Positions 9,963-20,437 of a DNA stretch of 64,000 nt are shown piece after piece. Every line of letters begins with the position of its first letter. Within the stretch, counting starts at the first letter, position 1. Location: NCBI GenBank assembly GCA_003241875.1, contig QBLU01000012.1:757-64756 (forward strand), in the 5' to 3' direction. A model generated the notes under the pieces. The model made no database searches. It saw only the letters and a program-made list of their open reading frames with translations, and was not told where the DNA came from. Both the position numbers and the translations under genes were made by a program. The DNA comes from Alphaproteobacteria bacterium. GTDB lineage: Bacteria > Pseudomonadota > Alphaproteobacteria > Sphingomonadales > Sphingomonadaceae.

Positions 9963-10484
9963 ATGGCACGCGGTGTGAAGTTCTGGCACGGCGACATGGT
10001 CGCCAACACGGTGTTCCCGCTCGAAAACAACTACAGCCAGGCCAACAAGGCCGACCAGGGCATCTGCACGGCCGCGGCGCTGGCCTGGTGTCGCGCCTCG
10101 CTGAAGCTCGGCCGCTTCGTGAACAGCTGGGCGGAGATCGGCACCACCGTCCACAACCTCAACATCGTCATGGCAACGCTGCGGCATCTCGATGCCAATC
10201 CGGTGGCGCAATGCGAGCTTGCCGGGGTCCGGGCGCTGGGGGGTGATCGCACCTGCGCCGGCATCGAGGAGGCGATGACCAACATCAAGCCGTCCGAATA
10301 CGGGATCGGCCTGTTCTGGAACAGCTATCACACGATGGCGTTCGGCTACAGCCACCTGCAGAAGGACTTTTTCGACATGAACTATGGGCTGTTCAGGTCG
10401 AAATACACCGCCGGCATCAAGGCCAAGGTGCAGGAACTCTATGGCGACGACATCATCGGCTACCGCCTCATCGGCAAGCTGTAG
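9963..10484 (+). CDS. Small stand-alone YopT/AvrPphB-like (peptidase C58) papain-fold cysteine protease
   Basis: Predicted triad C35 (QGICTAAALAW), H123 (YHTMAF), D138 (FFDMNYGLF); His-Asp spacing of 15 and the FFDxNxG motif match the C58 signature. Confidence 0.72.
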   Translation: MARGVKFWHGDMVANTVFPLENNYSQANKADQGICTAAALAWCRASLKLGRFVNSWAEIGTTVHNLNIVMATLRHLDANPVAQCELAGVRALGGDRTCAGIEEAMTNIKPSEYGIGLFWNSYHTMAFGYSHLQKDFFDMNYGLFRSKYTAGIKAKVQELYGDDIIGYRLIGKL

Positions 10485-10519
10485 CGCCGCCGGGCGTCTG
10501 CCGCCGGCGGCGCGACGCC

Positions 10520-12469
10520 CTACAGCTGCATCGCCTCCAGGCTGTCGAGCGGAATGAAACGCGGGGCCGCGGGCTCGGCGCCTTCCTGCGGGCGGAACAG
10601 CGGGTCGGCGGCGGCATAGGCCGAAAAATCATGGCCGGTGGCATCGGCGAGGTCGGTCACCGCGATCTGGAAGGTGCGATATTCGCCGAGCACGATGCCC
10701 TCCATCGCCTCGGTGCGGCTGCGGCGTTCAAGCAGGTCGCGGATCAGCTGGCCCTGGCTGAGCAGATAGGCGGTGGCGCGCAATCTGGTGCCGGTCTCGT
10801 CGAGCGTCGCCACCAGCTTCCAGTATTCGAGCGGCACGGTGGCGCCGTCGATGACCGGGTCGTCGGGGCCCAGGATCGGCCCGGTGAACACCGAGGCGAG
10901 GAAGCCGCCGGTGCGGGCATTGTCGAGGATGTAGTTTTCCAGCCCCTGCCACAGCAGCTTGCCCTGGTTGAGCTGCGAATGCTGCGGCGCGGCGTTGACG
11001 TAATGGAAGGTGTCGTCGTTGGCGAGCTGCGCCGATCCGCCCCAATTGGGGTCCTCGCGGCGCACCAGATGGCCGCGGTCGATCTCGGCATCGGCAAAGT
11101 TGGTCGACCCGAGCTGGATGGCGGCGGGGATGCGCAGGTCGGCGAACCACTTGTCGCGGCCGCGCTTGATGCGCACCGTCTTCTGGCCGTCGATGTTGAC
11201 CGCGGTCATCAGCGGCACCTTGGCTTCGGCGGAATATTTGACGCCGAAATGGGTGTAGCGCAGCTCGCCCGGCTCCTTGGGCTTGTCGGACGGCCTGGCA
11301 AGGCCGGTGGCGAGCGCCGGCGCCAGTTTTGGCCACGGCGTCGCGACCTTGCCCTTGCCGAGGAACTTGGTTGCAAAGCCCTTGCGGCCTTTGAAGAAAT
11401 CGGCGGCATGGCTGCCGTCGGCGAGGCTTTCGGTGGTCGCTTCAGCGCGGGCGCCACCGCCCGGCACCGCGACCGCCCTGCCCTTGAGCAACGCCTTCAG
11501 CGTCTCGACGCCGACGGCGCTGTTACCCTGGCCGAAGACGCCGGCGAAATGCAGGCCGACGACCTTGCCCGATTCCAGGCTGATCAGCGGCGATCCCGAA
11601 TTGCCGCCGAGGCTCGTGCAATCGTGCATCAGCAGCGTCTGGCCGGTCAGCGCCTGGGTGACGCGGCCCGGCGCCAGGCGCTTCACGTCATACAGGTCGC
11701 GGAAATATTTCTCCTGGGCGCCGGGATCGTTGCGGGAGTCGCGCGCCGGATAGCCGATCAGCGTCACCAGCTCGTCGAAGCCTGCTTCCTTGTCGGCGAG
11801 CGGCAGCGGCGACGGCTTGACCGGCGCGGTCGTCGCGACGCGCAGCAGCGCGCAATCGGCGGCGAGGTCGTCGGCGAGATATTCGATGGCGACGATCTGC
11901 ACGGTGTGGCTGGCACTGCCGCCGCTGCTGCCGTCTTCCTCGCGGAAATCGATGGCGATGCCTTGCCGGGCGCCGCCGGGGCTGCGCAGGAACACGCCGC
12001 TGCCGTTGGCGGCGCGCTGCGCGACCAGCTTGGCGACGTGGCGATTGGTGATGATGATGTCGCCGGTGGCGCGGCGATCGACGACCCAGCCGGTGCCGCC
12101 CCAGCGCATCGTCGAATTGACGAATTCGACGCGGCCGACCGACGGGATGTATTTCTGCACGCCGATGATCTTGGCATCGGCGCCGGGCAGGTCGGGCAGC
12201 GGCTCGAGCACGACCTGGTCGTTGCGGATCAGCAGCGGCGGCCGCCCGGTCAGCCGCACGATGGCTTCCAGCGCCGGCAGCGGCAGCAGGCTTTCGAGCT
12301 CGGCGGCGTCGCGTCCGGTGGTCGTCTCGATCTCGACCGGCAGCTCGGCGGCGACGGCGGGCGGCACGTTGCCGGCGGCGAGCCGGGCATTCACCGCCTC
12401 CACCATCTTGGGGGTCAACAGCCCGCGCAGGGTTTCGCGGCGTTCGGTGGTGTCGGCGGCGTCAGACAT
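10520..12469 (-). CDS. Trypsin-like serine protease fused to DNA/RNA non-specific (EndoG/NucA-type) endonuclease
   Basis: Protease triad ITNRHVA / ADCALL / GGNSGSP; nuclease DRGHLVRR...ANDDTFHYVNAAPQH..LNQG..WQGLE. Start at ATG 12469 with AGGAG RBS, overlapping the upstream stop; 649 aa. Confidence 0.9.
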   Translation of the reverse strand: MSDAADTTERRETLRGLLTPKMVEAVNARLAAGNVPPAVAAELPVEIETTTGRDAAELESLLPLPALEAIVRLTGRPPLLIRNDQVVLEPLPDLPGADAKIIGVQKYIPSVGRVEFVNSTMRWGGTGWVVDRRATGDIIITNRHVAKLVAQRAANGSGVFLRSPGGARQGIAIDFREEDGSSGGSASHTVQIVAIEYLADDLAADCALLRVATTAPVKPSPLPLADKEAGFDELVTLIGYPARDSRNDPGAQEKYFRDLYDVKRLAPGRVTQALTGQTLLMHDCTSLGGNSGSPLISLESGKVVGLHFAGVFGQGNSAVGVETLKALLKGRAVAVPGGGARAEATTESLADGSHAADFFKGRKGFATKFLGKGKVATPWPKLAPALATGLARPSDKPKEPGELRYTHFGVKYSAEAKVPLMTAVNIDGQKTVRIKRGRDKWFADLRIPAAIQLGSTNFADAEIDRGHLVRREDPNWGGSAQLANDDTFHYVNAAPQHSQLNQGKLLWQGLENYILDNARTGGFLASVFTGPILGPDDPVIDGATVPLEYWKLVATLDETGTRLRATAYLLSQGQLIRDLLERRSRTEAMEGIVLGEYRTFQIAVTDLADATGHDFSAYAAADPLFRPQEGAEPAAPRFIPLDSLEAMQL

Positions 12470-15400
12470 GGGACGTGACTCCTGTGAGGATGGCGAGCGG
12501 GGGGACAAAGGCCGAGGGAATGTCGTGGTCGAGCAGGGCGCCGGCGCGGGCGAGCGGGTCGGGCAGGGCGGCGACGATGCCGAGCACCCGGGTGTGGCGG
12601 CGTTGCAGCCGGGACAGCAGCCCGGGGCCGTCGCCGGCGGGATCCCACAGCGCCAGCTGCCGCATCGCCCAGTCGGCGGGATCGTCGAAATCGGCGAGTT
12701 TCTGGACGCGGCGCCGGATGATGCTGTCGGCGCCGCCGCCGCGCCCGTCCCCGCCCACATCCGGGCCGAGCCAGCCCGGCGGCGGCGTGTCGTACGACCA
12801 GCGGCCGGCGACGGTGCGGCGCCAGCGTTCGGCGGCGGCGGCGAGGGTGCCGAGATCGGGGTCGCGGTGGCGCCAGGCCTCGGCGCCGGCCCATTCGGCG
12901 AACAGGCCGAGCCCGGCGATGCCGGCGATGGGGTTGCCGGCGACCGGGCCGAGCCCGAGCGGCGAGCCCGAAAACAGCCCGCCGGCCTGGGCGAGCCGGG
13001 CGTCGGCGGCGCGCGCCGCGTCGATCAGCCGGTCGTTGCCGCGCAGCACGGCGAGGTTGGCGGCGATGATCGGATAGGGCGACAGCGCCACCAGCATCTG
13101 CGGGTCGTTCCATTCGATCGCCGCCGCGGATACCAGCCCGCGCGCGCCGAGCCGTTCGCGCACGACGCCAAAGGCATGGGCGGTCGCCGGCGCCTGGCTG
13201 CGGCGGCCGTCGGGCGCGGCGATCCAGGTGTCGAGCGCGGCCGCCACCGCGTCGCCGTCCTTCGACGACCACAGCGGCTCCTGGCGATGGCCATTAGCGG
13301 CGAGCACAAAGGCCAGCGCCCCCTGGCGGGCAAGCGGCCCGGCGTTGCGCATCGCCTCGGCGATCAGCCGGTCGATGCCAGGCAGGGCGAACATGCGCAG
13401 CAGCCGCGGCCGGGTGAATTCGGACCGGATCTCCAGCCGGGCGATGGCGAGCTGCAACGGGAGGCCGAAGACTTCGCCATCGTCGCGGACCAGCCGGTCA
13501 CGCTCGGCGAACATGCGCCGGGCGCGGTGCCAGCGGCCCGAGCGCCAGTAGAAGGCGCGGATGGCCATCGCCGCCGGCTGGCGCGGATCGAGGCCGCCGG
13601 CGGCCGCCATCTGGTCGACGACGAACTGGCCCTCGGCCCAATCCTCGCGGTCGATGAGGGTGAGGACCTCGGCCGCCAGCGCGGCGTCGTCGACCGTTGG
13701 TGCGGCGGCTTCGAGGACGCTGTCGCCGCCCTTGCGCAGCTTCGACGACCGGCGCCCGGCGGCGCCGGCAACGAGATCCTGCGCCACCGGCGGCAGCTCG
13801 GCGAGCATTGCCGGCTCGAACTGCTGCGCCACTGCGGTGGGGATCGCCGGGCGGGCCGGGCGAAAGCGCATCAGCTGTAGCCGGTGATAGGCGGCATCGA
13901 CGTCGGAGCGGGGGTCGCTTTGCCGCGCGAACCAGGCGGCGGCGGCGGCATCGACCCTTTCGCACAGCCTCGGCTGGTCGCGGTAGAGCAGGGGCAGCAG
14001 GATGGCGCGCATGTCGCTGCGATGGATGACGAAATCGCGGGCGACGGGATCGCGCTGGACGAGCCACAACTGGCCCGCCAGCGCGTTGAACAGCGCTTCG
14101 GCCCGGCCCGCGGCGAGGCGCGGCATGCCGAGCGCCGGCGCCAGCACATCGCCGAGGAAGCCGGCGCTGATCCGGCGTGCGAGCAGGCCGGGGTGGGCGA
14201 GCCGGCGCAATTCGGGGTCGTCGATCCGCGACAGCAGGATGCGGTAGAGGAACGCCGCCGCCACATCCTTGTCGATCGCGCCCTGCGGCAGTTCGCCGAC
14301 GCCATGGTCGCGGACCACGGTGGCGGCGAGGCGCAGCACCAGCGGGTTGCCGTCGGCGAGGTTGGCGATGGTCGCATGCGCCGCCGCCGGCACCTCGAGC
14401 CGGGTCAGCAACGCCTCGGTCGCCGGCGCATCGAGGCCGTCGAGCGGCACCGCCAGCCCGACCCGGCCGGGAGCGCTGTCGAGCGCGGCGCCGCGACCGG
14501 CGGCGAGCACGGCGAGCGGCCGCAGCCCGGCCGACAGCAGCGTGTCGAGCCAGCGGAACAGCCGCTCGGGATGTTCCTCGCCGCGGGCGCGCAGCACTTC
14601 GACGGTGTCGAGCACCAGCAGCACCGGCCGCCCGGAGGCGCGCACCGCGTCGCCGATCGCCGCGGCGAATTCGGGCGGCACGCTGCCGCGGCTGCTGTTG
14701 CCATAGCTTTCCTCGCCGCGGGTGACGCTGGCGGCGCGCAGCCGGGCGTCGAGCACCGGCTTGCCGGCGTCGCCGAGCCGGTCGGCGACCTGGCGCGCCA
14801 GCTCCATCGTCAGCCCGAGCAGGTCGTTGACGTCGAGGCCGGCACGGTCGAAATCGAGCCGCACGACGATGCACCCGTTGGCATCGGCGACGCTCGCATT
14901 TCCGGCTTCCGCAACACCGGCATCGCCGACGCGGCCGGTGACTTCCTCCAGCAGCGTCGATTTGCCGATGCCGGGGTTGCCGGCGATGTAGGCGGCGCGC
15001 ACCGGCAGCGCGACGAGCGGCTTTTCGAGCCAGGCGATCAGCGCCGCCGTCTCGCCTTCGCGCCCGAAGAAACCGCGCGCCTCGAATCCGCGGCGCCGCG
15101 CCTGGCGGTCATGGCGGGAGAGCGCCTGGCGGGCGTCGACGAGGCGGGCGCCGGCGGGGGCCGGCGGGCCGGCGCGGTCGAGCGCGGCGACGATGCGCTC
15201 GATGAGCGGGCGATCGGGCGTCGGCGCCGCGAGCGCCTGGGCGATGGCCGCGTCGGTGAAGGCGCCGTCCCCGGCCAGCGCCGCCAGCAGGTCGGCGGCG
15301 GGCAGGTCGGGGTCCTGGCTGCGGCGCTCGGCAACGGCGGCGAGCAGCTCGGCGCGGGTCGTCAGCTGCCGGTCGAGCACGAAGCGCCGTTCGCCGCTGC

Positions 15401-15611
15401 GGATCAGCCAGCGGGTGCCCCGGGGGCTGCCGGTGTCGAGATCGGTGTCGCAGGCGGCGGCGAGCGCCGAGGCGACCTGGGTGGTCAACCCCGCCCCACT
15501 GACAGCAGCCGCACGCAGCGCGGCGATCGGCTCGAACGGGCCGGACAGCGCCGCATAGCGTTTGGCGCGGATGACATAGGGGACGACATCTGGATCGAGC
15601 GGGCCGCTCAT
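12462..15611 (-). CDS. STAND-class (AAA_16-like) P-loop NTPase, 1049 aa
   Basis: GFFGREGE pre-Walker motif; Walker A GNPGIGKS; Walker B LLVLDTVEVL; GNPLVLRLAA (GxP); helical, partly TPR-like C-terminal region. Start at ATG 15611 in an ATGA overlap with the upstream stop. Confidence 0.85.
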   Translation of the reverse strand: MSGPLDPDVVPYVIRAKRYAALSGPFEPIAALRAAAVSGAGLTTQVASALAAACDTDLDTGSPRGTRWLIRSGERRFVLDRQLTTRAELLAAVAERRSQDPDLPAADLLAALAGDGAFTDAAIAQALAAPTPDRPLIERIVAALDRAGPPAPAGARLVDARQALSRHDRQARRRGFEARGFFGREGETAALIAWLEKPLVALPVRAAYIAGNPGIGKSTLLEEVTGRVGDAGVAEAGNASVADANGCIVVRLDFDRAGLDVNDLLGLTMELARQVADRLGDAGKPVLDARLRAASVTRGEESYGNSSRGSVPPEFAAAIGDAVRASGRPVLLVLDTVEVLRARGEEHPERLFRWLDTLLSAGLRPLAVLAAGRGAALDSAPGRVGLAVPLDGLDAPATEALLTRLEVPAAAHATIANLADGNPLVLRLAATVVRDHGVGELPQGAIDKDVAAAFLYRILLSRIDDPELRRLAHPGLLARRISAGFLGDVLAPALGMPRLAAGRAEALFNALAGQLWLVQRDPVARDFVIHRSDMRAILLPLLYRDQPRLCERVDAAAAAWFARQSDPRSDVDAAYHRLQLMRFRPARPAIPTAVAQQFEPAMLAELPPVAQDLVAGAAGRRSSKLRKGGDSVLEAAAPTVDDAALAAEVLTLIDREDWAEGQFVVDQMAAAGGLDPRQPAAMAIRAFYWRSGRWHRARRMFAERDRLVRDDGEVFGLPLQLAIARLEIRSEFTRPRLLRMFALPGIDRLIAEAMRNAGPLARQGALAFVLAANGHRQEPLWSSKDGDAVAAALDTWIAAPDGRRSQAPATAHAFGVVRERLGARGLVSAAAIEWNDPQMLVALSPYPIIAANLAVLRGNDRLIDAARAADARLAQAGGLFSGSPLGLGPVAGNPIAGIAGLGLFAEWAGAEAWRHRDPDLGTLAAAAERWRRTVAGRWSYDTPPPGWLGPDVGGDGRGGGADSIIRRRVQKLADFDDPADWAMRQLALWDPAGDGPGLLSRLQRRHTRVLGIVAALPDPLARAGALLDHDIPSAFVPPLAILTGVTSHV

Positions 15612-17380
15612 ATGACGGCCTTGAACATGGCGCGGACGGCCGGGCGCAGGCGCTCGGCGACCTGGCGGGCGGCCCAGGGGCTGTAGATGCCGTTGACTTC
15701 GTCGAGGCCGGCGAGGCCCATCTGCACCAGCTCGGCGACGCGTTCGGCCGAGGGCGACTTGCCCGCCGCCGCCGCCGCATCGGCGAGGAACAGCCGCACG
15801 TCGCTTTCGCCGAAGCCGGTGACATAGTCGGTCATCAGGCCGGGCGCGCCGATGTCGGGCGGGTTGGGCGGCGTCTGGAATTCGAGGCCGGGGATGGCCA
15901 CCGCCTCGAAGCCGGCGACGACGAGGCGCAAATTGGGCAGTTTCAGCGCCTGGTCGATGAAGCCTTCGAGTTCGGCGCGCATGGCATCGCCAAAGGCGAT
16001 CGCCGGATGGTCGATGAACAGCCAGAGCTGGCGGCCGACCGCGGCGGCCGTGGCGTCGAGCGCGGCGGCGGCGCGGCGGCCGCGATCGGCGCCGACGGCT
16101 TCGGGTGCGCTCTGTCCGGCGGCGACGCCCGGGCGATCCTCGATGGCGGCGCATTCGAAGCCGACCGCGGCGGCGCGGCGCAGGATGTCGTTGGCCAGGT
16201 CGGGGATCAGCGTTTCGAAGCTGATGCGGCACTGCCGCGTGTCGGGGCTGCGCGCCGTCATGCGGTCGAGCATGGCGAAGGAAAAGGCGAGGCCGGCGAG
16301 ATTGCCCGCCGCATCGGCGCGCTTGACGCGGATGCCGCGCACCCGGCCGTTGCCGCGGGCCAGCGCAAAGGCCTCGAAAAACGACTGGCGGCCGATGACG
16401 AACTCGCCATCGGGGGTGCCGTCGAGCGACCACATCCGCGGCGGTGCCAGGTCGGTGGTAACGACCGGCAGGATCCTGTCGTAGAATTTCGCCGTCGGCA
16501 CCAGCCGCCCGCCGTCGCGCCAGCCCTTGCCCTGGTGGATGCCGGCAAGGGTCAGCGTCGCATCGAAGCAGCCGCCGCCCGACGAGCCGCCACGGGTTTC
16601 GACGCTGTGGCCCCAGCGGCTGGTCAGGCGCGGGATCTTGGCCAGGCTGCCGATGCCGATGCCCTTGTCCTCGCCGTCGGGATAATGGACGACGATGACG
16701 GCGGCGCGGCGGCTGTAGGCGCCGGGTTTTGTCGGCAGCGGTGCCGATCCCATCAGCGCGCCGGCGGGGCGGGCGAGCCGGATGATGGCATAGTCGTTGT
16801 TGTCGCCGAACAGCGTGTCGTCGCGCGGCAGCCGGCTGGCGGCCTCGTCGGCGGTGGTCGGCGAGGCGACCAGCGGCGGCATCACCGCGTCGATCGAGCG
16901 GCCGTCGGACAGCAGCACGGTGACCTTAGACCAGGGTTCGGCGACCATCGTCGGGGTCGCGGCGAGGACATGGAAGGCGGTCAGCACCGTCGTCGGGCCG
17001 ACCAGCACGCCCGATCCCATGACGACGCCGTCGCGCAGGATGCGGCAGCGAAAGGCGGCGGCGCGGGCGAGGAAGGCGGCGGCCTTGACCGGATCGAGGT
17101 TCGATGCGGCGAGGTCCACCGCGCCGAACGCGGCGCCGCCGAAATCGATGGCGACACCGCGCACGCTGAGCGCCCGGGCAAAGGAATCGACGAGGTTGCG
17201 GCCCTGCAGCTGTTCGACCCAGAAGTCGCCGGGCGGCCGCCCGAACATCTGTGCCGCCGCGGTCAGCCCCGCCGCCTCCAGCCGCGGCCCGGTCGCATCG
17301 AGCATGACGGCGCCGAGCGCATCGGCGGCGACATCGGGGTGCGAATCGATCGCCGCGGCAATGTCGGCGGCCTCCCACAT
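15608..17380 (-). CDS. Trypsin-like serine protease with N-terminal helical domain and C-terminal degenerate (inactive) STAND-like domain
   Basis: GSGVLVG..VLTAFHV / NDYAIIRL / GGSSGGGCF triad intact. The C-terminal FVIGRQSF...LWLFIDHP follows STAND topology but has no GK[ST] Walker A. Confidence 0.78.
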   Translation of the reverse strand: MWEAADIAAAIDSHPDVAADALGAVMLDATGPRLEAAGLTAAAQMFGRPPGDFWVEQLQGRNLVDSFARALSVRGVAIDFGGAAFGAVDLAASNLDPVKAAAFLARAAAFRCRILRDGVVMGSGVLVGPTTVLTAFHVLAATPTMVAEPWSKVTVLLSDGRSIDAVMPPLVASPTTADEAASRLPRDDTLFGDNNDYAIIRLARPAGALMGSAPLPTKPGAYSRRAAVIVVHYPDGEDKGIGIGSLAKIPRLTSRWGHSVETRGGSSGGGCFDATLTLAGIHQGKGWRDGGRLVPTAKFYDRILPVVTTDLAPPRMWSLDGTPDGEFVIGRQSFFEAFALARGNGRVRGIRVKRADAAGNLAGLAFSFAMLDRMTARSPDTRQCRISFETLIPDLANDILRRAAAVGFECAAIEDRPGVAAGQSAPEAVGADRGRRAAAALDATAAAVGRQLWLFIDHPAIAFGDAMRAELEGFIDQALKLPNLRLVVAGFEAVAIPGLEFQTPPNPPDIGAPGLMTDYVTGFGESDVRLFLADAAAAAGKSPSAERVAELVQMGLAGLDEVNGIYSPWAARQVAERLRPAVRAMFKAVI

Positions 17381-17386
17381 CGCCGG

Positions 17387-18628
17387 TCAGGCATTCCAAG
17401 CCAGCGGGAATCGTTCGGGAACGCCGCTGCGCAATTCGACCGGCGCGGTGGGATGCAGGCCGGGCAGCAGCAGCAGTTGCCGGACGATCTCGCCGAGCAT
17501 CGGCCGGGCGATGGCGCGGCCGAGGCATTCGTGGATGCCCTGGCCGAAGGTGAAATTGTCGCCCTGCGCGCGGTGCGGGTCGAAACGGGTCGGATCGGGG
17601 AAGCTCGCCGGGTCGGACATGGCGCTGTGGGTCATCGCCAGCACGGTGGTGCCGGGCGGGATCATCTGCGCGTGCGGCGTACCGCCGGCGACCTGGGTGG
17701 CGCGGTGGCAGGTGCGGAAGAAATAGGGGAAGGCCGGGCGGAAGCGCAGCGCCTCCAGCGCGACGCCGTCGATGGCTTCGGGCGGGGCGGTGCGGGCGAG
17801 GTGCTGCGCCTCGGCGAGGGCTTCGGGGCGCGAGAACAGCTCCGCCATGACATTGTTGACGCAGTGGTTGGTCGTCTCGACGGCACCGATCAGCAGCCCG
17901 CCGGCGTTGAACAGCACCTTCTTGACGCCGAACTTGACGCCATCGGAAAAGGAAATCTGCAGCAGCCGCGTGATCGGATCGTCACCGCCGAGCCCCAGCT
18001 TCACCGCGATCGAGCGGCGCAGCACCAGCCGGCCGATGAACAGGCCAAGCCGGATGCTGCTGCGTTCGCGCCCGGCGGTGATCTCCGCCGATCGTGCCGC
18101 GCTCTGGCCGTCGAACGGCTGGTTGTGGAAGGCGTCCTGCTGGTTCCAGTAGGACCATTCGATAAGGTCGGCGGGGTCCTGGCCGTCGAGGCCGAAGAAC
18201 TGCTGCACCATGTCGACCGGCACCTGGCGGCTGAGCGCGGCGGGCACGTCGATCTGGCCGTTGGCCGCCATCAGCAGATTGGCGGTGCGATCGGCGACCC
18301 AGCTGCGGATTTCGGGAATCTGCTCGAAATCGAGCACCGCCTTCATGATCGATTTTTCGCGCCAGTGGTTGGCGGTATCGTCCTGCGCCATGAAGTAATC
18401 GCCCTGCTTGGGCTTGTAGAGATCGACGCCGAAATCGGCGTGGCGGCGCAGCACCAGGGCGCAATCGGCGTGGCGGAAGACCAGGGTCAGCTCGGGCAGC
18501 ACGATCACCGGCCGCTGTTCGCGGACCTCGGCAAAGAACGGGTGGGGTTCCTGCCGCATCCAGCCGCGCACCAGCGGCCAGCGTTGGGCCGCCGGCGTGG
18601 CGTCGAGCCGTTCGAGATAGCCTGTCAT
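17387..18628 (-). CDS. Cytochrome P450
   Basis: I-helix GLLIGAVETT; ExxR (EALR); FDPHR; heme motif FGQGIHECLG. Confidence 0.93.
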   Translation of the reverse strand: MTGYLERLDATPAAQRWPLVRGWMRQEPHPFFAEVREQRPVIVLPELTLVFRHADCALVLRRHADFGVDLYKPKQGDYFMAQDDTANHWREKSIMKAVLDFEQIPEIRSWVADRTANLLMAANGQIDVPAALSRQVPVDMVQQFFGLDGQDPADLIEWSYWNQQDAFHNQPFDGQSAARSAEITAGRERSSIRLGLFIGRLVLRRSIAVKLGLGGDDPITRLLQISFSDGVKFGVKKVLFNAGGLLIGAVETTNHCVNNVMAELFSRPEALAEAQHLARTAPPEAIDGVALEALRFRPAFPYFFRTCHRATQVAGGTPHAQMIPPGTTVLAMTHSAMSDPASFPDPTRFDPHRAQGDNFTFGQGIHECLGRAIARPMLGEIVRQLLLLPGLHPTAPVELRSGVPERFPLAWNA

Positions 18629-18646
18629 GTCCTGCCCCCGCAGCGT

Positions 18647-20437
18647 CTAGAGCGATTTCAGATATTCGAGCAGCGCCTGGCGCTGGGCTTCGGTGAGCTT
18701 GGCCACCCCGTATTCATGGCCTTCGCTGCCGTTGCCGGGGATCGCGAAGCCGTCGGCGGCCTGGGTGGCAAAGCGGAAGCTGTTGCCGGGCGCCGTGGCT
18801 TCCGTGCGATAGCCGACCTTGACGGGATCGTACTCGCGGGTGCCCATCATGAACGCCTTGGGCCGCTGCGCCGCCGGCAGCAGCAGGTCGTACAGCGTTG
18901 GCACCGAGCCGTTGTGGAGGAAGGGCGCCGTCGCCCAGATGCCGTCCAATGGCCGCGCCTTGTAGGCCATGTGCGGGCTGCCGGACTTGTAGCAGGCGTC
19001 GAGGACCAGCGGCCGCATGTCGGGCGCCTCCTCGATGACGACGCGCGGGGCACCGCCGCCGCCGAAGAACACCTTGGCGGTCTGGCCGATGATCTGGCCC
19101 TTCTTGCCGATCAGCGCGCCCTTGACGGTGGTTTCCAGCATCTCGGCGATCGGAGCTTCGGCGCCGAACTTTTCGCCGCTGCCGATATAGCCCTTGGTGG
19201 TGCCCTGCAGATTGCCGGTGGCGGATTTGTAGGTGATGGCGTTGCACGCCATCCATGGGTCGGTGGCGTTCGGCCCGGGTTTCAGCGGGATCATCGCCGC
19301 CTTCTGGAATTCGCCCGGGTCCTTCTTGTGGCAGCCCTCGCAATCGGCGGCGAACAGCGCCTTGCCGGCGGCGACCTTGGCCGGGTCGAGCGCGCCGAAG
19401 TTGGCCGGCCAGGCCGGCGACTTCAAGGAGACGAGCTGGGTTTCGAGGCGGATGAGATTGTCGGCCTGGACGCTGGATTTGTAGCCGCCGAGCCCGCCGC
19501 CCGGTGTCACCGTGATGTCGCCGAAGACGCCGATGACCTCGCCGGCGTTGCGGCCGAGCGCGCCGTAATCGAGGTAGCGGTTGCCGCCCAGCGACAGCCG
19601 CTGGTTCTGGGCGATGCCGTTCCACTGCAGCTTGTCGAAGCGGTGGATGTCCCAGATGTGCGGATAGCTGACCGGGGCGTCGGCGGGGTTGCGGGTCGGG
19701 CTGGCGGCACCGGTGAACAGCGCCACCTTGTTGAAGATGTGGCCAAAGGCGTCGACGCGGCCATAGCCATAGCGCAGCGGCGTCTTGTTCATGTCCTCGA
19801 CGCGGTCTTCCCAGGCGAGCAGCCTGGCCAGCGCGGCGCGCAGCAGGGTGCGGTTGCCGGGCGCGTCCTTGCTGCCGAGCGCCGCCTTGGCGAAACGGTC
19901 CCATTTTTCGGAGCCGTCGGGGGCGTTGACGGTGGCGCGCACGGCAGCGTCGAGGTCCTCGACAAAGGTCTGATAATCGAACAGCGCCGGGCCGCCGTCG
20001 ACGCGCATCGCCTTGCCCTGGTAGGTCAGCTCGGCGGTGTGGCAGGCCGAACAGTTCATCCCGACCCATTTTTCCTTCGGCCCCTGGCCGGCGAACCAGC
20101 GCAGTTTCGAATTGGCGAGATTGCTGTCGTCACTGTCATCGACGACGAGTCCGATCGGCAGCCGGTCGCTGTTGGGGCGCGGCAGCAGCCGCCACTGGGC
20201 GATGGTATCGGGGCCGAGGAAGGGCTTGGCCGCGTCAGGCTGTTCGAGCGCCAGCATCCAGGCCAGCGGCATCAGCCGGGAGCCCTGCGTCGCCGAATAC
20301 CAGGCCGATTGCTGCTGCGGCGACCAGTTTTGCCAGCCGGCCTGCGGCGCCGCATTGGAATAGGAGGCACAGGCCGCGATGGTCGCAGCTGTCGATAATG
20401 TTGCCAAAGCCTTGAGTATCAAAACGCGGTCGACCAT
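18647..20437 (-). CDS. Di-heme cytochrome c lipoprotein, RoxA/MauG/CcP-like
   Basis: Lipobox TIAAC; two CxxCH motifs (CSACH, CEGCH); YGYGRVDAFGHIFN; YKARPLDGIWATAPFLHNGSVPTLYDLL; GGGGAG RBS. Confidence 0.85.
   Translation of the reverse strand: MVDRVLILKALATLSTAATIAACASYSNAAPQAGWQNWSPQQQSAWYSATQGSRLMPLAWMLALEQPDAAKPFLGPDTIAQWRLLPRPNSDRLPIGLVVDDSDDSNLANSKLRWFAGQGPKEKWVGMNCSACHTAELTYQGKAMRVDGGPALFDYQTFVEDLDAAVRATVNAPDGSEKWDRFAKAALGSKDAPGNRTLLRAALARLLAWEDRVEDMNKTPLRYGYGRVDAFGHIFNKVALFTGAASPTRNPADAPVSYPHIWDIHRFDKLQWNGIAQNQRLSLGGNRYLDYGALGRNAGEVIGVFGDITVTPGGGLGGYKSSVQADNLIRLETQLVSLKSPAWPANFGALDPAKVAAGKALFAADCEGCHKKDPGEFQKAAMIPLKPGPNATDPWMACNAITYKSATGNLQGTTKGYIGSGEKFGAEAPIAEMLETTVKGALIGKKGQIIGQTAKVFFGGGGAPRVVIEEAPDMRPLVLDACYKSGSPHMAYKARPLDGIWATAPFLHNGSVPTLYDLLLPAAQRPKAFMMGTREYDPVKVGYRTEATAPGNSFRFATQAADGFAIPGNGSEGHEYGVAKLTEAQRQALLEYLKSL

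Follow-up and report, generated by a model that had tools for sequence, protein, structure and literature searches.

The window analysed here, a 64,000-nucleotide stretch of DNA from a Sandarakinorhabdus-type sphingomonad, contains on its minus strand a gene for a trypsin-like peptidase joined by a flexible linker to a non-specific nuclease (Endonuclease_NS). Judged by the sequence, it is translationally coupled to two genes ahead of it, the three encoding in order a trypsin-like protein, a STAND NTPase and the trypsin-nuclease protein. The open reading frame (ORF) of the last begins with the ATG at 12469..12467, which is preceded by a Shine-Dalgarno sequence (AGGAG) 9 nt upstream, and ends with the stop codon at 10522..10520; its first 8 nt are also the last 8 of the STAND gene, stop codon included (ATGTCTGA). 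A longer version starting with the ATG at 12760 was rejected: the homologues all begin near MSD/MTD...ERL and none uses that start.

The gene very probably encodes a LypC-type protein, the third component of a CARD-NLR-like cassette of three genes (LypABC-type) for cell death or defence. This architecture has already been published as LypC and CARD-NLR, and the gene adds a sphingomonad member to a described family. In Caulobacter crescentus, LypA (592 aa; AGJ94600.2) consists of a CARD-like bundle (residues 1-80), a trypsin domain (85-305) and a degenerate ATPase, LypB (ACL94045.1) of an N-terminal domain, an ATPase and TPR-like repeats, and LypC (CCNA_00579) of a trypsin domain (1-335), a linker and an endonuclease (354-662), in which residues S296, H471 and N505 were mutated (Banks et al., Nat Microbiol 2026, PMC13236601). 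When the cassette was matched against this published description and its residue positions, the gene order was found to be alike, with products of 590, 1,058 and 649 aa here and a LypA of 592 aa there. The third proteins share the order of trypsin-like peptidase, flexible linker and Endonuclease_NS within about 650-660 residues, and both are without a signal peptide. Their catalytic residues are collinear, S291, H467 and N501 here corresponding to S296, H471 and N505 there; the spacing from the His to the Asn is 34 in both, and that from the Ser to the His is 176 here and 175 in C. crescentus. The two systems differ in host. The three products are referred to below as the LypA-, LypB- and LypC-like proteins.

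A homology search with the LypC-like protein recovered 1,615 relatives among the scored candidates, from Proteobacteria and Actinobacteria, and every one of the best 120 of these carries both Pfam domains. Identities of 55-65% were observed among the best relatives, which come from Sphingomonadales, Caulobacter, Burkholderia/Paraburkholderia, Cupriavidus, Pseudomonas, Kribbella and others. LypC of C. crescentus (ACL94044.1) was found neither among the best 120 relatives of the LypC-like protein nor among those of a Caulobacter sp. homologue, and since it falls outside both lists it is probably a more distant member. The nuclease of Roseibium aggregatum IAM 12614, one of the top full-length structural homologues of C. 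crescentus LypC (PMC13236601), is 49% identical to the LypC-like protein, and at its locus (L021) LypA- and LypB-like genes precede it. The order of LypA-, LypB- and LypC-like genes recurs in at least 20 of the 69 genome loci, in Alpha-, Beta- and Gammaproteobacteria and in Actinobacteria. Between cassettes, the LypC proteins are 52-59% identical, the LypA proteins 35-42% and the LypB proteins 36-43%; the greater conservation of LypC fits an effector that stays fixed while its sensors evolve fast.

Three-gene operons of a CARD-protease, an ATPase with repeats and an effector, the last often fused to trypsin, have also been described as CARD-NLR operons, which are enriched near defence systems, as for example in Azospirillum sp. 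TSO35-2 (Wein et al., bioRxiv 2023 / Nature 2025). The systems tested against phage in that work, from Lysobacter and Pedobacter, differ from the cassette in carrying gasdermin or phospholipase-endonuclease effectors and not a trypsin-nuclease fusion.

The domain anatomy of the LypC-like protein was determined from Pfam matches, alignments and an AlphaFold2 model (50 homologues as input, mean predicted local distance difference test score (pLDDT) 81.6), and the coordinates of the features are collected in Table 1. A first-pass annotation of this DNA had described about 60 N-terminal residues with no signal peptide, a trypsin domain, a linker and a C-terminal beta-beta-alpha-metal nuclease, and all but the length of the first segment has held. 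Pfam Trypsin_2 matched residues 125-306 (E 2.3e-16), and the three trypsin motifs named there were located as NRHVA at 142 (H144), DCALL at 205 (D205) and GNSGSP at 289 (S291), giving the triad order H, D, S and the GxSGxP motif of the chymotrypsin fold (S1). Endonuclease_NS matched residues 402-618 (E 4.7e-43), with the DRGH motif at 464-467 supplying the general-base His, NQG at 501 the Asn metal ligand (N501) and LENY at 510 the Glu on the following helix (E511), as in PF01223. The linker is likewise real, with pLDDT <50 at residues 336-347 and a length of 17-28 aa among relatives. Its one conserved Glu (E343 in this protein, retained in 91% of relatives) lies some 8 residues ahead of the invariant D351-G-x-H354, and stand-alone nuclease relatives start at a position equivalent to residue 352-362.

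The region before the trypsin domain is longer than was first described, with approximately 110-120 residues preceding the barrels. Residues 1-60 form helices 2-17 and 20-32 followed by a loop of variable length, and are poorly conserved according to the model and the alignments; the near-conserved L58-E59-S60 (E in 85% of relatives) closes this variable region. The segment that follows has the invariant residues E68, I70, G75, R76, P77, S110, G112, R113, E115, F116 and N118. No signal peptide or membrane segment was detected by Kyte-Doolittle hydropathy (maximum 0.96 in a 15-residue window over the first 70 aa and 1.16 in a 19-residue window over the whole protein), and 116 homologues likewise showed no hydrophobic N-terminal or internal segment. 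The protein is predicted on this basis to be cytoplasmic.

Table 1. Coordinates of the LypC-like gene, its parts and adjoining features (positions in the window).
Feature	Position	Strand	Basis or remark
LypC-like gene, 649 aa + stop	10520..12469	-	ORF and translation; Pfam Trypsin_2 + Endonuclease_NS
Variable helical N-terminal region, residues 1-60	12290..12469	-	AlphaFold2 model, alignment, dN/dS 0.5
Conserved pre-trypsin segment, residues 61-120 (LEAIVxxxGRPPLL, SVGRVEF)	12110..12289	-	pLDDT 80-95
Chymotrypsin-fold serine peptidase, residues 121-328	11486..12109	-	Pfam; conserved triad
Protease triad codons H144, D205, S291	12038-12040, 11855-11857, 11597-11599	-	
Flexible interdomain linker, residues 329-350	11420..11485	-	pLDDT, length variation, dN/dS ~1
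Nuclease module, residues 351-620: conserved pre-nuclease segment (351-401) and beta-beta-alpha-metal Endonuclease_NS	10610..11419	-	
Nuclease catalytic codons H467, N501, E511	11069-11071, 10967-10969, 10937-10939	-	
Clade-specific nuclease insertion, residues 581-591 (ERRSRTEAMEG)	10697..10729	-	Candidate regulatory or cleavage loop, inference only
LypB-like STAND/NLR-like NTPase, ~1,058 aa	12462..15638	-	Pfam AAA_16; Walker A GNPGIGKS, Walker B LLVLD
LypA-like protein, 590 aa: five-helix bundle at the N-terminus, then trypsin-like peptidase; no Pfam match in the C-terminal region	15608..17380	-	Pfam Trypsin_2
GC-rich inverted repeat directly after the stop, between convergent genes	10485..10519	.	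GCGCCGCCGG...CCGGCGGCGC

A sequence search of the PDB matched the nuclease part to EndoG (6m3f) and Anabaena NucA (1zm8/2o3b), and the region around the catalytic serine weakly to V8-type glutamyl endopeptidases. A Foldseek comparison of the whole model with the PDB gave the autotaxin nuclease-like domain and HtrA1 only, which restates the two domains and is silent on the N-terminus. No Pfam match at E <=10 was obtained for the N-terminal 120 aa or the linker region of the LypC-like protein or for the N-termini of the LypA- and LypB-like proteins, and no effector-associated domain (EAD) of Pfam was detected in the LypC-like protein or its two partners. The trypsin domains of the LypA- and LypC-like proteins gave no significant similarity to each other by BLASTP and are therefore not recent paralogues. 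By sequence and with weak E-values, the nearest solved relatives of both are Glu-specific S1B enzymes (V8 protease; exfoliative toxins). The LypC-like gene is the sole Endonuclease_NS gene of the genome. The inhibitor NuiA (PF07924) had no match in the genome, a weak negative because the family matched none of the control genomes either.

The nuclease appears to be a working enzyme under selection. In the alignment, H467, N501 and R470 are present in 216/216 relatives and E511 in 215/216; of the 183 relatives with a trypsin domain, 182-183 retain the triad. Compared with the two closest relatives, the nuclease domain has the lowest ratio of nonsynonymous to synonymous substitution rates (dN/dS) of the gene (0.125 and 0.257); values elsewhere are about 1 for the linker and about 0.5 for the first 60 residues. 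An exhaustive search with residues 1-335 (the trypsin module) yielded 2,642 representatives, and 56 of these, deliberately chosen to be diverse in length, were scanned for domains. The C-terminal partners in these 56 were Endonuclease_NS (26), PLDc_2 (9), Amidase_2 (3), Peptidase_S8 (2) and HNH (1), and AAA_16 was found in 5 and TPR-S in 2. One protein of 1,712 aa (P0153) carries AAA_16, Trypsin_2 and Endonuclease_NS and is thus a natural LypB-LypC fusion with the NLR in front. The invariant catalytic residues, the lowest dN/dS and the swapping of domains together point to the nuclease as a working, selected enzyme, and the pattern across the relatives is, as predicted from their domains, that of a conserved adaptor/protease bearing an exchangeable toxic domain under NLR control. 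Five further proteins of 1,637-2,277 aa (P0156, P0157, P0163, P0164 and P0167) have a LypC-type trypsin match at approximately 1,030-1,950 and are probably similar fusions.

The full proposal, which adds to the family identity a two-enzyme effector role and an order of events, is on balance probable. The LypB-like STAND NTPase would sense a trigger and oligomerise, and would recruit the LypA-like helical-bundle-trypsin protein. The activated protease or proteases would switch on LypC, most probably by cleavage in a flexible segment marked by Glu or else by forced proximity; candidate segments for the cut are the N-terminal loop, the interdomain linker and the clade-specific loop 581-591. The nuclease would then degrade nucleic acid while the LypC protease would cut further targets, and the cell would be killed or lysed. 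LypC would in this way act as a cytoplasmic two-enzyme effector, with the trypsin module as receiver or relay and as essential protease, and the EndoG/NucA-type nuclease as exchangeable warhead. That the nuclease is latent, that cleavage switches it on and that the steps follow this sequence is our inference; the requirement for the protease and ATPase active sites is carried over from Caulobacter, and the defence function from the related CARD-NLR operons.

Activation of the nuclease by cleavage is a tentative part of this proposal, and we consider it somewhat doubtful. One candidate segment is the loop 581-591, which the phmmer alignment shows to be missing from NucA. Residues R583, E587, E590 and G591 of the loop are conserved in 98-99%, and pLDDT is <50 at residues 586-594. 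The loop is present in 174 close relatives, which form the clade containing every LypA/LypB-linked cassette; divergent trypsin-nuclease fusions and the majority of stand-alone nucleases do not have it. With L58-E59-S60 and the linker Glu, it makes up three low-confidence segments with isolated conserved acidic residues. A more specific version, in which LypC-type proteins would be zymogen-like pro-effectors opened by cuts of the LypA and/or LypC protease after E59, E343 and E587/E590, is unlikely. If true, it would make LypC an EndoG/NucA-fold counterpart of the gated pro-nuclease of the HamM system, independently evolved and fused in cis, and would account for the tolerance of a non-specific nuclease in the cytoplasm with no inhibitor gene to restrain it.

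Such a precedent exists in HamM-HamA and Avs1, where a protease gates a pro-nuclease of a different fold (Tuck et al., Science 2025, PMC12799240). Both arrangements pair a trypsin-like protease with a DNA-degrading enzyme in immunity controlled by an NTPase. In HamM-HamA and Avs1 the conserved residues in disordered insertions are the cleavage sites; here the loop 581-591 and the linker, both modelled with low confidence, have conserved residues that may be comparable. The HamM-HamA enzyme has a metallo-beta-lactamase fold, is encoded by a separate gene and is cleaved after Ile, whereas the nuclease here is a beta-beta-alpha-metal Endonuclease_NS fused in cis. The LypC-like gene is therefore not a HamM-type member, although it possibly works like that pair.

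Several observations weigh against the two-enzyme proposal. The CARD fold of the first protein is unconfirmed here: the model of LypA-like residues 1-85 is a confident five-helix bundle (pLDDT 87.9), and its best Foldseek match in the PDB, a non-significant one, was the death-effector-domain protein vFLIP (E 8.6, TM 0.29). The LypA-like N-terminus also gave no sequence match to the solved bacterial CARDs. In C. crescentus, LypC with H471A, N505A or both still produced wild-type lysis (ghost cells), the LypC of C. endophyticus is without the nuclease domain, and no interaction of LypC with LypA or LypB was found by bacterial two-hybrid analysis; Banks et al. conclude that the nuclease is not the death effector and that a lytic effector lies downstream instead (PMC13236601). 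No LypC cleavage product or processing has been reported in the literature for any member of the family.

The first-pass annotation had called the gene the terminal effector. It stands as the last gene of a trypsin/STAND/trypsin-nuclease cassette with a selected nuclease; the part which made the nuclease the killing output is at odds with the lysis still caused by nuclease-dead LypC in Caulobacter. In the light of the Caulobacter mutants the nuclease is at most a candidate for the terminal effector, and the protease is more than a release device, as S296A abolished the formation of ghost cells (PMC13236601). Those assays scored lysis only, in cells whose genome was already being digested by the gene transfer agent (GTA), and GTA-producing cells without LypABC also die and lose their genome (PMC13236601). 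Any part that the nuclease plays in killing or defence would therefore have escaped measurement there. A nuclease released by cleavage as the terminal output is plausible.

The strongest alternative is that the output is proteolysis alone: LypC would cleave a lytic or envelope target in a cascade with LypA, and the nuclease would be a stabilising, DNA-binding or secondary module. The Caulobacter mutants favour it, in that loss of the catalytic Ser abolishes lysis and loss of H471 and/or N505 does not, and so does the C. endophyticus protein. In addition, deletion of the nuclease domain destabilises C. crescentus LypC, and lysis upon overexpression requires lypC (PMC13236601); many relatives of the trypsin module, of about 310-350 aa, stand alone. 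A mere scaffold would, however, not be expected to keep invariant catalytic residues in 216 relatives and to be the most constrained domain of the protein, other toxic domains occupy the position of the nuclease in relatives, and the Caulobacter assay scored ghost cells and not DNA integrity or phage defence. We consider the proteolysis-only explanation to be less likely than not by a wide measure, and the two-enzyme effector is preferred.

It is improbable that the cassette serves in this host for the release of a GTA, as in C. crescentus, rather than against phage. Caulobacter does not release its GTA without LypABC (PMC13236601), and the genome does encode an RcGTA-like structural cluster (contig C34, ~86,000-95,900, locus L072), with a tail tube protein, a tail completion protein, DUF2460, DUF2163/BR0599 and an Rcc01698-like Phage-tail_3 protein. 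GTA_TIM (PF13547), on the other hand, had no match in the genome, though the presence of other GTA genes keeps this absence from being decisive, and the LypC-like gene occurs in only 3 of the 37 genomes of the genus. Close homologues in Actinobacteria, Burkholderia and Pseudomonas, and on plasmids beside CBASS, cannot have an alphaproteobacterial GTA as partner; with this spread to Actinobacteria, Beta- and Gammaproteobacteria and plasmids, GTA release is not the general role of the family. That the protein is an exported or scavenging protease-nuclease in a coincidental operon context has the precedent of its nuclease family, since Serratia nuclease, EndA and Anabaena NucA are exported and this is the usual life-style of Endonuclease_NS proteins, but can be dismissed as scarcely credible in view of the lack of a signal peptide or hydrophobic segment here and in the 116 homologues, the 8-nt overlap with the STAND gene, the synteny conserved across phyla and the existence of NLR-trypsin-nuclease fusion proteins.

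Compared with Anabaena NucA (with its inhibitor NuiA), EndoG and Serratia nuclease (PF01223), the LypC-like nuclease has in common the His of DRGH, the Asn ligand of Mg2+ and the Glu. Those enzymes are either sent out of the cell or kept in a compartment under a separate inhibitor; the LypC-like nuclease is predicted to be cytoplasmic, is fused to a protease and has the extra conserved loop. Ternary conflict systems of a STAND NTPase, a peptidase and an effector, with effector-associated domains, were reportedly described by Kaur, Burroughs, Iyer and Aravind in 2020, and these resemble the cassette in combining a STAND NTPase, a trypsin-like peptidase and a swappable effector; EAD1 is encoded beside one relative (Bradyrhizobium, below).

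The gene itself is an added family member and not a discovery, and its value lies in specific sites that bear on the mechanism of activation. Two questions concern the family as a whole: what role is played by a universally conserved nuclease that is dispensable for lysis in the sole system tested, and how a cytoplasmic non-specific nuclease stays silent. The comparative data give residues for mutation, namely the active sites, the clade-specific loop and the conserved Glu residues in flexible segments, and the swapping of warheads and the NLR-LypC fusions likewise bear on the role of the nuclease.

The cassette is accessory and patchy in the genus, where the full-length LypC-like gene is confined to the three genomes noted above; the 24 genomes compared from 22 other genera of the order all lack that gene. 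The G+C content of the cassette is 0.72-0.74 (positions 12001-18000, the LypA- and LypB-like genes) and that of the flanks 0.65-0.68, and the higher G+C together with the patchy distribution suggests horizontal acquisition. Relatives are present on 82 plasmid records. In Paraburkholderia phenoliruptrix, plasmid pSYMBR3459 has an annotated trio (trypsin-like peptidase, ATP-binding protein, DNA/RNA non-specific endonuclease) between insertion sequence (IS) elements and a CBASS operon. A search of phage genomes found no relative in any phage record.

Departures from the three-gene order were also identified. In the divergent lineages (Pirellulales, Ignavibacteria, Bacillota, Kocuria) the trypsin-nuclease fusion is kept and the protease has diverged. 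Two Streptomyces loci (L059 and L061) are split, with a stand-alone nuclease of ~300 aa followed by a LypB-like STAND gene and, several kb downstream, by a separate LypC-type trypsin. Bradyrhizobium sp. CSS354 (L024, 9725-15026) encodes a divergent trypsin-nuclease without the loop 581-591, then an EAD1 protein, then an nSTAND1 + pentapeptide-repeat protein, an arrangement which suggests that the same effector has been plugged into a different STAND system. One Pseudomonas aeruginosa record has an orphan trypsin-Endonuclease_NS gene (L076; NZ_CP133752.1, 58094-60022) which is 40% identical and without LypA or LypB partners. It lies between ilvA and a LysR regulator near cyoBCDE, in what looks like a core-genome context, and probably corresponds to PA1327.

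On the downstream side, the inverted repeat after the stop codon probably marks the end of the transcription unit, as judged from its position and sequence; the consensus terminator scan missed it because it is without a T-run. The convergent ORF beyond it (9963-10484, +, 173 aa) was considered as an inhibitor or partner and rejected, being missing from all related loci. In the 91%-identical relative of the same genus (L001), unrelated DNA without this ORF lies between the lypC-like stop and the promoter region of a TonB receptor. The ORF is lineage-specific and has a weak hint of Peptidase_C58 (E 0.0035). Directly upstream of the cassette, genes for a P450 and a RoxA-like di-haem protein (17387-20437, -) are predicted to be co-transcribed with it, in which the locus differs from LypABC of C. 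crescentus; among the 69 loci this arrangement was found in L001 only.

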